Virus record (IMG/VR): IMGVR_UViG_2711768015_000009
Source of the DNA: a virus
Lineage: Duplodnaviria; Heunggongvirae; Uroviricota; Caudoviricetes
DNA: 6,737 bases
Reading direction: 5' to 3' (one strand)
Both the position numbers and the translations under genes were made by a program. Below, piece after piece: positions 952-6,737 of this stretch. Within the stretch, counting starts at the first letter, position 1, and every line of letters starts with the position of its first letter. The notes beneath the pieces are model-generated. The model was not told the DNA's origin. It did not search any database and saw only the letters and a program-made list of their open reading frames with translations.

Positions 952-986
952 TTGCGGGAAAAGGAGAGTTAAGTAGAATTGCAGCG
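952..986 (+). promoter_or_regulatory. candidate sigma70 promoter and start of hok mRNA
   Basis: -35-like TTGCGG (952-957), 16-nt spacer, -10 TAGAAT (974-979). The downstream sequence GGGTGCTTGAGGCTATCTGTCTCAGG forms the 5' hairpin expected of hok-family mRNA leaders. Confidence 0.4.
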
Positions 987-1039
987 GGTGCTTGAGGCTA
1001 TCTGTCTCAGGCATGAACACCAAAAGGCAGATAGAGAAA

Positions 1040-1106
1040 AGCCCCAGTTAACATTACGCGTCCGGCAAGACGCTTAACATTAATCTGAGGCTCAATCTAT
1101 GAACGG
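1040..1106 (-). ncRNA. sok: predicted Sok-like antisense RNA of the hok/mok locus (boundaries approximate)
   Basis: On the minus strand there is a promoter-like pair: -35 TTGCCT (complement of 1137-1142), 17-nt spacer, -10 TAACCT (complement of 1114-1119). It is oriented to transcribe antisense across the mok start and Shine-Dalgarno region, as in characterised hok/sok loci. The 3' end is not clearly defined by a canonical terminator. Confidence 0.4.
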
Positions 1107-1311
1107 CAAATCTAGGTTAGCCTCTTACGTGCCGAAAGGCAAGGAGAAGCAGGCTATGAAGCAGCAAAAGGCGATGTTAATCGCCCTGATCGTCATCTGT
1201 TTAACCGTCATAGTGACGGCACTGGTAACGAGGAAAGACCTCTGCGAGGTACGAATTCGAACCGGCCAGACGGAGGTCGCTGTCTTCACAGCTTACGAAC
1301 CTGAGGAGTAA
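1099..1311 (+). CDS. mok: Mok-like reading frame (in-frame N-terminal extension of hok, as in chromosomal mokC/hokC-type loci)
   Basis: ATG at 1099 is in frame with hok (MNGKSRLASYVPKGKEKQA-MKQQKAM...). The leader region aligns by eye with the plasmid R1 hok/mok leader as recalled from memory (TAGCCTCTTAC...GCAAGGAGAAG.AGGC.ATGAA). Confidence 0.5.
   Translation: MNGKSRLASYVPKGKEKQAMKQQKAMLIALIVICLTVIVTALVTRKDLCEVRIRTGQTEVAVFTAYEPEE
1156..1311 (+). CDS. hok: Hok/Gef-family type I toxin (51 aa membrane peptide)
   Basis: Translation is MKQQKAMLIALIVICLTVIVTALVTRKDLCEVRIRTGQTEVAVFTAYEPEE*. This is near-identical in pattern to Gef/HokC and HokD as recalled from memory. Shine-Dalgarno AAGGAG lies at 1141-1146. 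Confidence 0.9.
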   Translation: MKQQKAMLIALIVICLTVIVTALVTRKDLCEVRIRTGQTEVAVFTAYEPEE

Positions 1312-2947: not shown

Positions 2948-3328
2948 ATGACCGAGCGCATAGAATTTGTTTTACCTTACCCGCCGACGGTGAACACTTA
3001 CTGGCGTCGTCGTGGCAGCACATATTTTGTATCAAAAGCCGGGGAGCGTTATCGCCGGGCAGTGGCGCTTATTGTTCGCCAGCAGCGGCTGAAATTAAGC
3101 CTGTCCGGAAGGTTGGCAATAAAAATTATTGCAGAACCACCGGATAAGCGCCGCCGTGACCTGGACAATATTCTGAAAGCGCCGCTGGATGCGCTGACGC
3201 ATGCGGGGTTGCTAATGGACGATGAGCAGTTTGATGAAATCAATATCGTTCGTGCTCAGCCAGTATCTGGTGGACGTCTGGGGGTGAAGATTTATCCCAT
3301 AATGCTTGAAGGGCAGGTCAAAAAATGA
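2948..3328 (+). CDS. rusA: crossover junction endodeoxyribonuclease RusA (Holliday junction resolvase)
   Basis: The 126-aa product aligns by eye to E. coli RusA as recalled from memory: LPYPPTVNTYWRRRG...VS..G..YR..VA...PDKRRRDLDNILKAPLDALTHAGLLMDDEQ...GGRL. The start ATG abuts the upstream stop (TAAATG). Confidence 0.9.
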   Translation: MTERIEFVLPYPPTVNTYWRRRGSTYFVSKAGERYRRAVALIVRQQRLKLSLSGRLAIKIIAEPPDKRRRDLDNILKAPLDALTHAGLLMDDEQFDEINIVRAQPVSGGRLGVKIYPIMLEGQVKK

Positions 3329-4146
3329 AACTGGAAGATTTACCGAAATACTACTCCCCAAAATCCCCCGGCCTGACTGATGCATCGGCCTCAACGTCGA
3401 AAGATGCGCTGAGTATCACTGATGTGATGGCCGCGCAGGGCATGACACAGAATCGGGCTGAGATGGGGGTTTCTGCGTTCCTTGGGAAAATGGGCATTAG
3501 TATGAATGACAGAGAGCGGGCAACAGAATTGCTGACAGAATATGCACTCAGTCGGTGTGATCGCGTGGCGGCGTTAAGAAAACTCCCGGCAGAAATAAAA
3601 CCGGCAGTGATGCGTATTATGGCTTCGTATGCGTTTGAAGATTATGCCCGTAGCGCGGCGAGCAAAAAACAGTGCCCCTGCTGTCACGGAAAAAAATTTA
3701 TTGAAAGCGAGGTTTTTACAAACAAGATCCAGTATCCGGATGGTAAGCCGCCGGTATGGGCAAAGTGTACGAAAGGTGTGTATCCGTCTTACTGGGAAGA
3801 ATGGAAAAAAGTCAGGGAGGTGGTAAAAGTTGCCTGTCCGGAGTGTGGCGGAAAGGGTGAGGTTTCCACCGCCTGTAAGGATTGCCGTGGGCGTGGTGTC
3901 GCCATTCATCGTGAAGAGTCGGTAAAACGTGGTATGCCTGTTATCAGAGACTGCCAGCGTTGTGGTGGTCGTGGCTATGAAAGACTACCATCAACGGAGG
4001 CATTTAATGCTATATGCGAGGTGACAAACCAGATAACACGCGCGTCATGGGAAAAAACAGTTAAGAAATTTTATGATGCGCTGGTGACCCGGTTTGATAT
4101 TGAAGAAGCATGGGCTGAGCGGCAGTTAAAAAAGGTAACTAGGTAA
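3325..4146 (+). CDS. late-gene antitermination protein Q (zinc-finger Q family, QuuQ-like)
   Basis: The 273-aa product has four CxxC motifs (CPCCHGKK, CPECGGKG, CKDCRGRG, CQRCGGRG). Its start overlaps the rusA stop (ATGA). It lies immediately upstream of a PR'/qut-like element, the canonical Q position. Confidence 0.8.
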   Translation: MKLEDLPKYYSPKSPGLTDASASTSKDALSITDVMAAQGMTQNRAEMGVSAFLGKMGISMNDRERATELLTEYALSRCDRVAALRKLPAEIKPAVMRIMASYAFEDYARSAASKKQCPCCHGKKFIESEVFTNKIQYPDGKPPVWAKCTKGVYPSYWEEWKKVREVVKVACPECGGKGEVSTACKDCRGRGVAIHREESVKRGMPVIRDCQRCGGRGYERLPSTEAFNAICEVTNQITRASWEKTVKKFYDALVTRFDIEEAWAERQLKKVTR

Positions 4147-4151
4147 CAAGG

Positions 4152-4200
4152 TTGATTTTTCCGGAATCTGTGGTAAATTCGTTATAACGATGGGCGTTTT
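4152..4200 (+). promoter_or_regulatory. PR'-like late promoter with qut-like pause and Q-utilisation element
   Basis: -35 TTGATT (4152-4157), 16-nt spacer containing TGg, -10 TAAATT (4174-4179). This is followed at lambda-identical spacing by AACGATGGG (4186-4194); lambda PR' reads TAAATT-TGACTC-AACGATGGG from memory. Predicted +1 is near 4186. Confidence 0.7.
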
Positions 4201-4227
4201 ATGCCTGACGTTAGAAGAGTTTCTACA

Positions 4228-4250
4228 ACCCGCCGCCGAGCGGGTTTTTT
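4228..4250 (+). terminator. tR'-like intrinsic terminator ending a short (about 65-nt) PR' leader RNA
   Basis: Hairpin ACCCGC-CGCCGA-GCGGGT followed by TTTTTT (4245-4250). Confidence 0.7.
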
Positions 4251-4370
4251 ATGACTGAAATCGCGTCAGTACAGTAAACGCGCTGGTGGCGGTGAATACC
4301 TGTCTTTCAGCTTGCTGGCTTTTTCGACAAGAGTTATTGGTGTGTCACGTTAACCGGAAAAGGAAAAGAC

Positions 4371-4568
4371 ATGCTAAAACAGCAGGATATGACAGAAACC
4401 GCCAGAGTGGTGTTTAATGAATTAAGCGTTACCGAACCGGCGACAGTCGGGGAGATAGCGCAGAATACTTACCTTTCACGCGAACGCTGCCAGTTAATAC
4501 TGACCCAGCTGGTTATGGCGGGTCTGGCAGACTATCAGTTCGGTTGTTACAGACGCCTTCCGCAGTGA
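4371..4568 (+). CDS. small winged-helix DNA-binding protein, PapI/FaeA-like (tentative family call)
   Basis: The 65-aa product is MLKQQDMTETARVVFNELSVTEPATVGEIAQNTYLSRERCQLILTQLVMAGLADYQFGCYRRLPQ. The segment TVGEIAQ...SRERCQLILTQLVMAGL parallels PapI TAEIAEAL...ARYYLLLLEKAGMV as recalled from memory. Shine-Dalgarno AAGGA lies at 4358-4362. Confidence 0.5.
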   Translation: MLKQQDMTETARVVFNELSVTEPATVGEIAQNTYLSRERCQLILTQLVMAGLADYQFGCYRRLPQ

Positions 4569-4578
4569 AGGCTTTTTT
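4555..4578 (+). terminator. intrinsic terminator overlapping the stop codon of the PapI-like ORF
   Basis: Hairpin GCCTTC-CGCAGT-GAAGGC (4555-4572) followed by TTTTTT (4573-4578). Confidence 0.55.
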
Positions 4579-4595
4579 ATTTGTGGTAAATGGGC

Positions 4596-4626
4596 GGCTG
4601 GTGGGTGTTAGGGGCACCCACCAGCC
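4596..4626. repeat. perfect 12-bp inverted repeat with 7-nt spacer in the methyltransferase leader
   Basis: GGCTGGTGGGTG (4596-4607), spacer TTAGGGG, CACCCACCAGCC (4615-4626). A second 7-bp palindrome CTGCTTT-GCGC-AAAGCAG lies at 4669-4686. Confidence 0.6.
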
Positions 4627-4718
4627 ATCTGCTCATGCGTTGGGTTCACAAGCAAACCTCAGGCCCACTGCTTTGCGCAAAAGCAGAATGAGCCTATCAG
4701 AGACAGGCTTAATGATCC

Positions 4719-5773
4719 ATGCTTAATACTGTAAAAATATCCAGTTGTGAGTTAATCAACGCCGACTGCCTGGAATTTATCCGGTCGTTACCCGAAAATT
4801 CTGTTGACCTGATAGTCACGGACCCGCCGTACTTTAAAGTGAAGCCTGAGGGCTGGGATAACCAGTGGAAGGGCGACGATGATTACCTGAAGTGGCTGGA
4901 CCAGTGTCTGGCGCAGTTCTGGCGGGTGCTGAAACCTGCCGGAAGTCTTTACCTGTTCTGTGGTCATCGCCTGGCATCTGATATCGAAATCATGATGCGT
5001 GAACGCTTCAGTGTGCTGAACCATATTATCTGGGCGAAGCCGTCCGGACGCTGGAACGGATGCAACAAGGAAAGCCTGCGGGCGTATTTCCCCGCCACAG
5101 AGCGCATTCTGTTCGCGGAACATTATCAGGGGCCGTATCGTCCGAAAGATGCCGGGTATGCGGCGAAGGGCAGTGCACTGAAACAGCATGTGATGGCCCC
5201 GCTGATTTCTTACTTTCGTGATGCGCGAGCTGCCCTGGGGATAACGGCAAAACAGATTGCAGATGCCACAGGAAAGAAAAACATGGTGTCGCACTGGTTC
5301 AGTGCCGGTCAGTGGCAGTTGCCGAATGAAAGCGATTATCTGAAATTACAGGCGCTGTTTGCCCGGGTGGCAGAAGAGAAGCATCGGCGTGGTGAACTGG
5401 AAAAGCTCCACCACCAGCTGGTGGATACGTATACCTCACTGAACCGGCAGTATGCGGAGCTGCTGAGTGAATATAAACATCTGCGGCGGTATTTTGGCGT
5501 GACGGTGCAGGTGCCGTATACCGATGTGTGGACGCATAAACCGGTGCAGTTCTATCCCGGGAAACATCCGTGCGAAAAACCGGCAGAAATGCTGCAGCAG
5601 ATAATCAGCGCTAGCAGTCGTCCGGGTGACCTGATTGCAGATTTTTTCATGGGGTTGGGTTCGACAGTGAAAGCGGCACTGGCGCTCGGGCGTCGTGCAA
5701 TTGGCGTTGAGCTGGAGACTGAACGTTTTGAGCAGACGGTTCGGGAAGTACAGGATTTAGTCAGCCAGAACGG
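4719..5773 (+). CDS. beta-class amino (N6-adenine/N4-cytosine) DNA methyltransferase, prophage-encoded orphan; 3' end lost in the N-run
   Basis: Motif IV (DPPY, in LIVTDPPYF) lies near the N-terminus and motif I (DFFMGLGST) near the C-terminus, which is the beta-class order. A long insert between them includes an HTH-like segment (LGITAKQIADATGKK). The track ORF continuing to 6332 is an artefact of N translating as X. Confidence 0.85.
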
Positions 5774-6098
5774 NNNNNNNNNNNNNNNNNNNNNNNNNNN
5801 NNNNNNNNNNNNNNNNNNNNNNNNNNNNNNNNNNNNNNNNNNNNNNNNNNNNNNNNNNNNNNNNNNNNNNNNNNNNNNNNNNNNNNNNNNNNNNNNNNNN
5901 NNNNNNNNNNNNNNNNNNNNNNNNNNNNNNNNNNNNNNNNNNNNNNNNNNNNNNNNNNNNNNNNNNNNNNNNNNNNNNNNNNNNNNNNNNNNNNNNNNNN
6001 NNNNNNNNNNNNNNNNNNNNNNNNNNNNNNNNNNNNNNNNNNNNNNNNNNNNNNNNNNNNNNNNNNNNNNNNNNNNNNNNNNNNNNNNNNNNNNNNNN
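5774..6098. other. 325-nt run of N (assembly gap or masked sequence)
   Basis: Directly visible. It hides the methyltransferase 3' end and the 5' part of the tRNA. Confidence 0.95.
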
Positions 6099-6147
6099 TT
6101 GCCTTCTAAGCAATCGGTCACTGGTTCGAATCCAGTACAACGCGCCA
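6099..6147 (+). tRNA. tRNA-Arg (anticodon UCU), 3' portion only; 5' part lies in the N-run (full gene about 6071-6147)
   Basis: Anticodon loop CTTCTAA (6103-6109) with U33 and A37 gives anticodon TCT. Anticodon stem TTGC/GCAA, T-arm ACTGG-TTCGAAT-CCAGT, acceptor 3' strand ACAACGC, discriminator G and encoded CCA (6145-6147) are all present. Confidence 0.8.
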
Positions 6148-6161
6148 CACTTATTTTCCCT

Positions 6162-6188: not shown

Positions 6189-6591
6189 AATGTCTCACAA
6201 TTCAGACGGTTGACAGTTGTCTGTTTTGCGGGGAGTTTGTTAAAAGAAACTGGCATGGTGAATCCCCCTGTGCGGAGGGGCAATCAGCGAGTAGGTATAT
6301 GGGATAATCGCGGATTCAGGTGCTGGTACTGAATTCACCGGGAGGCACCCGGCATCATGCAATGGCACATAGCGCCACTCTCCAGCCCTCTCCGGAGGGG
6401 CTTTTCTGTGCCGGATACATCACAGTTTCTGGAACCTTAGGTACTACAGTATCAGTCAGGGTGCTATATTTTCAGATGTGATGAAAGCCTGTCAGCAGGC
6501 AGGGCGTATCGGAAATGACCCAGTAGAGAAAACGTTGACTCAGATACCGGTGCTGAGTTACCGGGAAACCGGCATCACATGACCGCTATCC

Positions 6592-6737
6592 TGAGGTGTA
6601 CTGGCAATAGCGGACACTACCATTTGTTCTTTTTTTAAGCAGCCATCTGATGATATTTTTCCCTGAAGGCTGCCGGGGAGATATTCCCCAGACGAGAGTG
6701 ACGACGCTGACGATTGTAGAAAATCTCAATGTATTCC
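6592..6737 (-). mobile_element. second copy of the same IS3-family terminus, inverted
   Basis: Exact reverse complement of 1-146. The IS body lies beyond the window edge. Confidence 0.75.
6635..6736 (-). CDS. IS3-family transposase C-terminal fragment (minus strand)
   Basis: Mirror image of 2-103, with identical translation. Confidence 0.75.
   Translation of the reverse strand, partial: EYIEIFYNRQRRHSRLGNISPAAFREKYHQMAA

Follow-up and report, generated by a model that had tools for sequence, protein, structure and literature searches.

A predicted winged-helix gene and a structured leader RNA precede an M.EcoGII-type methylase gene behind Q in lambdoid prophages

What ties a reading frame of 65 amino acids (aa) to the DNA methyltransferase gene that follows it behind the late antiterminator gene Q of a lambdoid prophage, and what lies in the stretch between the two? 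The question is raised by a lambdoid prophage fragment of 6737 bases, IMG/VR record IMGVR_UViG_2711768015_000009, which was read on one strand and is here called the window; all coordinates refer to its whole length. An earlier note, made from the letters of this DNA, had listed open reading frames (ORFs), terminators, repeats and a GATC in the region, all of which are present (Table 1) and exceed chance, and had proposed that a PapI/FaeA-like regulator and an orphan methylase are expressed under Q control as an epigenetic or anti-restriction module. The observation is confirmed and the interpretation is partly supported. The cassette consists, in this order, of an intrinsic terminator, a gene for a PHROG_331 protein, a second and often weaker terminator, a leader of ~135 nucleotides (nt), a gene for an M.EcoGII-type methylase, and transfer RNA (tRNA) genes, and the whole arrangement was found again in more than 150 loci. 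The enzyme can be identified, the gene order is conserved, the leader has a conserved RNA structure, and the methylase start is not preceded by a Shine-Dalgarno sequence. We consider it probable that this is a widespread cassette of the late operon of lambdoid prophages, and that it acts as an anti-restriction module, expressed late and controlled at several levels in a way comparable to com/mom of phage Mu.

The methylase and its small partner gene

The methylase ORF matches Pfam N6_N4_Mtase (PF01555) with 144.1 bits (cut-off 26.7, E 7.9e-42), and DPPY at residues 35–38, a central target-recognition region and FMGLG at residues 310–314 near the C-terminus follow each other in the order of the beta class, to which the earlier note had assigned the enzyme. 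The helix-turn-helix (HTH) insert described there can be seen as a Pfam HTH_3 match at residues 167–195, but with E 0.036 this match is sub-threshold. The ORF is cut at position 5773 by a run of N, which by comparison with two related loci, L001 (352 aa) and L005, hides just the last codon and the stop. Over the full length 324 of 349 residues (93%) are identical to M.EcoGII, including all of the first 102; the M.EcoGII sequence was machine-read from the SUPREM supplement (PMC11551740) with a few reading errors, and the true identity is maybe slightly higher. M.EcoGII and M.EcoGI of Escherichia coli O104:H4 C227-11 (Murray et al. 2018, PMC5778455) show the same order of DPPY, target-recognition domain and FxGxG and are also prophage-borne, whereas the window copy differs from M.EcoGII by a Leu for the conserved Ser in motif I and by a C-terminus that is three residues longer. 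Judging from the sequence the methylase is a near-copy or orthologue of this already characterised enzyme, and as far as the methylase is concerned the module can therefore not be called uncharacterised; in part this is an outcome which the earlier note had named as counting against its own reading.

Adenine is methylated by M.EcoGII whatever the surrounding sequence; lysogens do not express the enzyme, its expression is harmful, and it is active alone both in vitro and in vivo (PMC5778455). The same paper names phage 1720a-02 as the carrier of a very similar enzyme, and the DNA of this phage is 95% identical to the window. A review from 2025 groups M.EcoGII with Mu Mom as 'silent in lysogens and toxic' (PMC12707154). 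In the window motif I reads DFFMGLGS where the family has DFFMGSGS, that is a Ser313Leu substitution in the S-adenosylmethionine (AdoMet, SAM) motif. Among ~150 homologues with a recognisable motif I the Leu is confined to the window and an identical viral contig (L192); FMGSGS is present in 142, and six more have the Ser with another residue before the Gly (148 with Ser). As Leu313 is rare and lies in the AdoMet motif, this copy of the methylase may be impaired or inactive.

The pairing with the small ORF was surveyed in 80 loci of various species with a gene for a methylase relative, ~76 of them with upstream sequence; relatives down to 61% identity are found in Providencia, Morganella, Photorhabdus and Xenorhabdus. 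A PHROG_331 homologue is located directly upstream of the methylase and on the same strand in ~60 of the ~76 loci (about 80%), and the remaining ~16 have unrelated cargo or an insertion sequence (IS) at this place. Among viral contigs retrieved by a 21-nt motif of the leader, the small ORF is present in 107 of 113, and the methylase begins 130–132 nt past the motif in 107 of 111. The small protein of an Stx2c phage (Stx, Shiga toxin) is 48% identical and has the same position in the cassette, and P0148, a still more distant member, sits in the same arrangement. The small ORF and the methylase, which the earlier note had paired, are thus a real, conserved pair across enterobacterial prophages. 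In the literature searched neither the small ORF nor the leader was found to be described, and the M.EcoGII paper (PMC5778455) mentions neither.

The small ORF is preceded by an AAGGG-type Shine-Dalgarno sequence that is conserved 8–10 nt upstream. Compared with 99 distinct homologues it shows 180, 148 and 516 differences at codon positions 1, 2 and 3, and among the changed codons 387 are synonymous and 231 non-synonymous; this codon-position bias and the conserved Shine-Dalgarno sequence point to a real gene under purifying selection. The protein falls into PHROG_331 ('unknown function', E 1.4e-37) and has no NCBIfam match. The family is small: in 1.8 billion proteins clustered at 50% it has 85 representatives, and the homologues with a named source come from enterobacteria and their relatives. 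Best conserved are the N-terminal MLKQxDMT and the helix CQLILTQLxMAGL. The predicted structure is a three-helix bundle with a beta-hairpin wing, a minimal winged helix, and the reading of the small ORF as a genuine winged-helix protein is upheld. Two fold searches place it nearest to the DNA-binding domains of ArsR, MarR, BlaI and IclR. The best Pfam matches are TrmB, MarR_2 and DprA_WH, all under their cut-offs (TrmB 18 bits, cut-off 25.6, E 0.0026), and some family members are labelled 'TrmB family transcriptional regulator' in RefSeq.

The leader RNA of the methylase

Over the 135 nt that lead up to the ATG of the methylase the median nucleotide identity to the window is 82% (84–90% in most Enterobacteriaceae), as compared to 74% for the coding sequence of the methylase. 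The leader of the window is predicted to fold with -63.4 kcal/mol (z = -4.6 vs shuffles), and single-sequence folds that are unusually stable (z -4.6, -3.4 and -3.1) have two domains in common. In Domain I a helix AUGGGC/GCUCAU is stacked on the hairpin formed by a perfect inverted repeat of 12 base pairs (bp); by our own estimate ~0.002 such repeats within 40 nt are expected in 661 nt. Most relatives have a bulge and G-U wobbles in this first hairpin, and in Providencia the arms are fully compensated (GACUGUAAAGG.../...CCCUUACAGUC). Domain II is closed by AGGUCA, in some leaders AGAUCA, paired with UGAUCU directly ahead of the AUG, and the conserved GATC is therefore one strand of a predicted RNA helix. 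The AUG is itself paired in the predicted fold of the window, and in relatives the conserved helix ends at -1. No Shine-Dalgarno sequence is found upstream of the methylase AUG in Enterobacteriaceae.

In an alignment of 38 sequences 93.9% of the cells are paired, and 12 of the 40 pairs are changed on both sides, as compared to 3.2 in shuffles (0 of 500 reach the observed number) and 2–6 in slid controls; the structure is a prediction, and since the sequences are related these shuffle statistics overstate its significance. A set of 102 sequences gives the same pairing picture. The covariance model R1 has one match per source, with 71–166 bits, in 52 sources (51 related loci and the window), always on the methylase strand and ending at ATG+6, and loci outside the set from which the model was built are included. 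The model is weak on Photorhabdus leaders and matched nothing else in 619 kb. Many of the pairs are G-U, and the structure should therefore form on the sense strand only. A scan of the whole window against Rfam gave no family for the leader at E<=0.1, and nothing credible was seen at E<=10 over 4150–4760. The leader, already described as heavily structured in the earlier note, is a conserved structured RNA that is undescribed as far as found.

The left arm of the first hairpin, inside which a Chi site is located, does not vary across Enterobacteriaceae and Morganella, unlike the right arm; this invariance might be owed to Chi, to the RNA or to both. The reverse Chi in the right arm is due to the repeat being perfect in this copy. 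The hairpin was rejected as an intrinsic terminator, as no U run follows it in Enterobacteriaceae. In Xenorhabdus (L050–L084), ~90–110 nt before the methylase ATG, there is a U run after the first hairpin, giving it the look of an intrinsic terminator, and some Xenorhabdus leaders have a clear GAGAGGA Shine-Dalgarno sequence; the control logic may therefore differ between lineages.

An upstream ORF (uORF) at 4590–4691 on the plus strand starts with MGGWWVL, in which two Trp codons stand in tandem, and shares sequence with the invariant hairpin arm. Among relatives it is 7, 33, 43, 45 or another number of codons long, and its stop overlaps the methylase start in about a quarter of the variants. 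A conserved leader peptide was rejected, given the variable length and the loss of the uORF in Providencia, where the hairpin is kept, and so was an obligatory translational coupling to the methylase, given that just ~1/4 of the variants end at its start. An antisense RNA or minus-strand promoter was discarded since there is no promoter-like site, the G-U pairs suit the plus strand only and the matches of the model on the minus strand are weak. The leader matches no known RNA family, neither SAM riboswitches, isrK and sok nor the others in Rfam, and the anti-small RNAs (anti-sRNAs) of Tree et al. map 3' of the moron. The GATC, which the earlier note had listed, was also considered as a Dam switch and is better explained by the RNA pairing. 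On a first MAFFT alignment RNAalifold gave a poor structure with a long-range UGGGC/GCCCA helix; this pairing, with one compensatory change, is a possible alternative conformer.

Proposed control of the cassette and alternative readings

The Q protein of the window matches PHROG 'anti-termination protein Q-like' (E 6e-112), and the candidate late promoter PR' lies directly after Q as in the lambdoid architecture. The first terminator forms the 5' edge of what is conserved, and the homology to phage phiP27 starts exactly at this terminator. Of 149 distinct upstream regions 135 have a terminator-like hairpin with a T run ahead of the small ORF, at a median distance of 126 nt and with varied stems. 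The cassette is found behind Q genes of four unrelated Pfam families, PF03589, PF06323, PF06530 and DUF1133, with lysis genes downstream. Its position behind Q and a terminator fits the antitermination-gated expression suggested in the earlier note, and it resembles the PR'/tR' moron region of lambdoid and Stx phages (stx, tRNAs, lambda 6S, StxS; PMC7547250, PMC4104026) in lying behind Q, in the terminator right after the promoter, in the tRNA genes downstream and, in relatives, in the stx2 and lysis genes that follow. The leader, for which Rfam has no model, differs from the known small RNAs of that region, being neither the PR'-tR' transcript nor one of the convergent anti-sRNAs that lie 3' of the moron. 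A weak resemblance to isrK, below the gathering score of 50, is seen at 4179–4250 (18.9 bits) and 1320–1401 (25.8 bits), both on the plus strand; the former is the expected place of a short PR'-to-terminator transcript, the counterpart of lambda 6S RNA, StxS and IsrK (PMC7547250).

In the lysogen, transcription from PR' would be halted at the terminators, and messenger RNA (mRNA) that reads through would be poorly translated because the closing helix AGGUCA/UGAUCU, with its GATC, abuts or covers an AUG without Shine-Dalgarno sequence. Upon induction the Q-modified RNA polymerase would pass the terminators, and the enzyme would be made late, hypermethylating the replicating phage DNA ahead of packaging and thereby shielding the progeny from the restriction systems of the next host. 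The winged-helix protein might in this scheme be dedicated to the cassette and regulate expression of the methylase through the leader, in a Com-like manner, a role we put forward tentatively and with considerable doubt. Somewhat less probable still is the wider proposal that the leader represents an undescribed class of two-domain cis-regulatory RNA, whose invariant unpaired nucleotides gate a toxic N6-methyladenine (m6A, 6mA) methylase, with PHROG_331 as the dedicated trans partner and a non-homologous analogue of Com. A further possibility is that the leader RNA senses a small molecule such as SAM or S-adenosylhomocysteine (SAH).

In phage Mu, Com is a small translational activator and Mom a toxic DNA-modification enzyme. 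In both systems an adenine-modifying enzyme that is toxic and promiscuous as to sequence stays silent in the lysogen (traits taken here from the literature on M.EcoGII) and is produced late, which here is presumed. Both have a small ORF of ~60–65 aa directly ahead of the enzyme gene in the same orientation, a start codon of the enzyme that adjoins or lies within an RNA helix, which here is predicted, and control stacked in several layers. They differ in that Com is a zinc-finger RNA-binding protein while the small protein here is a winged helix with two Cys, and in that com overlaps mom while here a 150-nt leader with a terminator-like site separates the genes. Transcription of mom needs the phage protein C and Dam/OxyR at a GATC cluster, whereas here Q antitermination is presumed and there is a single GATC, and the Mom chemistry is carbamoylmethylation as opposed to methylation.

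Several points speak against a Q-gated module of this kind. The candidate PR' agrees with the consensus at just 8 of 12 hexamer positions and was for this reason below the threshold of the consensus promoter scan, and the dependence on Q is deduced from synteny and from the literature on related phages. A conserved block (…CTTGCTGGCTTTTTCGACAAGAGTTATTGG…) at 4300–4370 on the plus strand, between the first terminator and the small ORF, does not reach the threshold of the promoter scan, but could hold a weak promoter from which the small protein would be made in the lysogen. A site comparable to the second terminator is present in 43 of 84 distinct variants, simple terminator criteria thus holding in about half. 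Four of the five AF2 models of the small protein are of low confidence, and the protein is near-neutral in charge. The leader is equally conserved in the ~20% of methylase loci without the small ORF, and therefore needs no small protein in cis.

Among the other explanations, the one that survives best takes the winged-helix protein for a conventional transcription factor that binds DNA as a dimer. As a repressor or controller, in the way of the C proteins of restriction-modification systems, it would bind palindromes in the leader or near its own start and set the timing of methylase transcription. The fold neighbours ArsR, MarR, BlaI and IclR agree with this, the helix-3 motif CQLILTQL is nearly invariant in the family, and the leader DNA does contain palindromes, namely the 12-bp repeat here and, in many relatives, GCTTTAGCGCTAAAGC, which is a perfect palindrome of 16 bp. 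In most relatives, however, the first hairpin stays paired by way of G-U wobbles and a bulge, so that an RNA hairpin but no DNA palindrome is preserved, the promoter scan found no promoter on either strand of the leader, and the matches to Pfam HTH families are all under threshold. C proteins also belong to the Xre type of HTH proteins and are associated with an endonuclease gene, which is missing here. We regard such a factor as unlikely.

Alternatively, the small protein could act on the enzyme or its product, either as an antitoxin-like inhibitor or partner of the methylase, or as a reader or shield of m6A-rich DNA, for instance against Type IV nucleases. A small protein first and a toxic enzyme second is the order of toxin-antitoxin systems, the pairing with the methylase is strongly conserved, and prokaryotic winged helices that sense 6mA have reportedly been described in one paper. 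Against this, the two genes are 150 nt apart with a terminator-like site and a leader between them, unlike the tight coupling of toxin-antitoxin genes, the small gene is missing from ~20% of the loci, and the small protein has no sequence similarity to DpnI-type 6mA-sensing domains in Pfam or in a search of PDB sequences. The enzyme M.EcoGII is, moreover, active by itself (PMC5778455). Taken together this makes an action on enzyme or product improbable.

Equally improbable in our view is that the small ORF and the methylase are neighbouring morons inherited together without a functional link, the leader being a cis element of the methylase alone. It would account for the ~16 of ~76 species loci in which methylase and leader follow other cargo and in which leader conservation is the same, and unrelated genes are known to insert preferentially in the region behind Q (PMC4104026). 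It does not account for the position and orientation of the small ORF, which are kept from Escherichia to Xenorhabdus and Providencia in spite of less than 50% identity, nor for its end, which lies ~100–150 nt (typically ~150) before the methylase ATG. The family is also small, and in the examined loci that extend downstream it is almost always followed by this methylase.

An epigenetic switch, with a PapI/FaeA-like methylation-pattern regulator and an orphan methylase acting through the GATC before the ATG, is largely refuted and hardly credible: although the small protein resembles PapI (PF04703; PDB 2HTJ, ~70 aa) in its size and winged HTH, hhalign places the HTH region in the same register and a conserved GATC adjoins the ATG, Pfam FaeA gives no match at E<=1, phmmer against PDB sequences no PapI at E<=10, hhalign of the family alignment against the 2HTJ sequence a probability of 3.2%, and neither fold search has PapI among its top matches, while the enzyme is non-specific and not GATC-specific (PMC5778455), the single GATC in 650 nt, where PapI systems have paired sites, co-varies as a strand of an RNA helix (AGGUCA or AGAUCA with UGAUCU), and there is no fimbrial operon and no Lrp site. 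Neither the likeness to PapI/FaeA seen in the earlier note nor an epigenetic switch is thus upheld.

The window, related prophages and what the cassette means

Table 1. Features of the window; strand and remarks as far as given, a point marking a feature without strand.
Feature	Position	Strand	Remarks
hok/sok toxin-antitoxin locus	986–1311	+	sok RNA 112 bits (Rfam); Hok/Gef peptide E 3e-23 (Pfam)
Late antiterminator gene Q, quuQ type	3325–4146	+	273 aa; PF03589 Antiterm E 1.6e-53
Candidate late promoter PR'	4152–4179	+	TTGATT, 16-nt spacer, TGgTAAATT extended -10; read from the sequence, putative
Intrinsic terminator, tR'-like, 5' edge of the conserved cassette	4227–4252	+	hairpin AACCCGC/GCGGGTT (4227–4246) and T run
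Chi GCTGGTGG between terminator and small ORF	4282–4289	+	in 63 of 149 distinct upstream regions
Winged-helix protein, PHROG_331	4371–4568	+	65 aa; ATG start; AAGGA 8–9 nt upstream
Second terminator-like hairpin and T run, spanning the stop codon of the small ORF	4555–4580	+	stem 4555–4572 plus TTTTTTAT
Conserved structured leader RNA of the methylase, ~135 nt	4585–4724	+	covariance model R1, 128 bits
Leader Domain I	4590–4636	+	includes the 12-bp repeat hairpin 4596–4626
Perfect 12-bp inverted repeat, 7-nt loop	4596–4607/4615–4626		first hairpin of the leader
Chi inside left arm of first hairpin	4597–4604	+	reverse Chi 4618–4625 in right arm
Leader Domain II	4637–4722	+	closing helix holds the GATC and, in this copy, the start codon
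7-bp repeat	4668–4674/4680–4686
GATC	4714–4717		only GATC in 4150–4800
M.EcoGII-type beta-class N6-adenine DNA methyltransferase	4719–5773	+	352 aa; PF01555; ATG start 4719; L313 in motif I
N run	5774–6098	.	covers methylase gene end and the tRNA genes present in relatives
STnc100 small RNA	6224–6413	+	Rfam 123.6 bits, gathering score 47
Chi copies	911, 2056, 2114, 4282, 4597, 5417	+
Chi copies	2520, 2572, 4618, 5411	-

The ends of the window (1–~115 and ~6600–6737) are inverted copies of the end of IS600, which carries an IS3-family transposase gene, and the end matches Shigella and E. coli copies to 100%; the window thus probably represents a complete short contig with this repeated IS at either end. 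From left to right it contains hok/sok, a DUF968 gene, rusA, the Q gene, the cassette region, the N run, a tRNA 3' end and STnc100, and the prophage is truncated ahead of any lysis genes, so that none follow the cassette in this copy. In relatives tRNA-Ile/Met(CAT) and tRNA-Arg genes come after the methylase at the position of the N run; a tRNA 3' half is still readable at ~6099–6150, and ARAGORN found no complete tRNA in the window. STnc100 occupies the place that stx and the convergent anti-sRNAs have in Stx phages. Chi (GCTGGTGG) is present in 10 copies in ~6.4 kb, where ~0.2 are expected in random sequence, and two of the plus-strand copies are inside the cassette.

DNA that matches the window with 94–97% identity is found in many E. 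coli prophages and Stx2-converting phages, in the order Q, hypothetical protein, DNA methylase, tRNAs, stx2AB or iraM/nanS-like genes, and lysis genes, which in Stx phages places the cassette between Q and stx2. In Stx2a phages of the 933W/VT2-Sakai type only the last ~107 bp of the methylase gene are left upstream of the tRNA genes, and this remnant is the scar of a cassette deletion in that lineage. Other cargo is located between Q and the cassette in related prophages, namely a C5 DNA methylase with HEPN and GmrSD-type genes (L210, 2889–5747), an AAA_15 ATPase with a partner gene (L208, 4083–5554) and a TfpB-family gene (L205, 5114–5827), and by its gene content the region looks like a hot spot of defence and counter-defence.

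The copy in the window is of lower biological weight, being an IS600-bounded, decayed remnant with a possibly damaging substitution, and it may no longer function. For the family the cassette has a wider bearing. As a reagent M.EcoGII has found wide use, for instance in chromatin footprinting and engineered RNA methylation, and it is thought to be a phage counter-measure against restriction, while the means by which a phage keeps such a toxic enzyme silent have so far not been described; the conserved partner protein and the leader RNA are concrete, testable handles on this control. In several Stx2-converting phages the cassette lies between the late promoter and stx2; toxin expression therefore leads through its terminators and structures, and the leader element would lie on the only transcript that reaches stx2. 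If the proposed control holds, layered regulation as in mom of phage Mu would have a second case, made up of other components.

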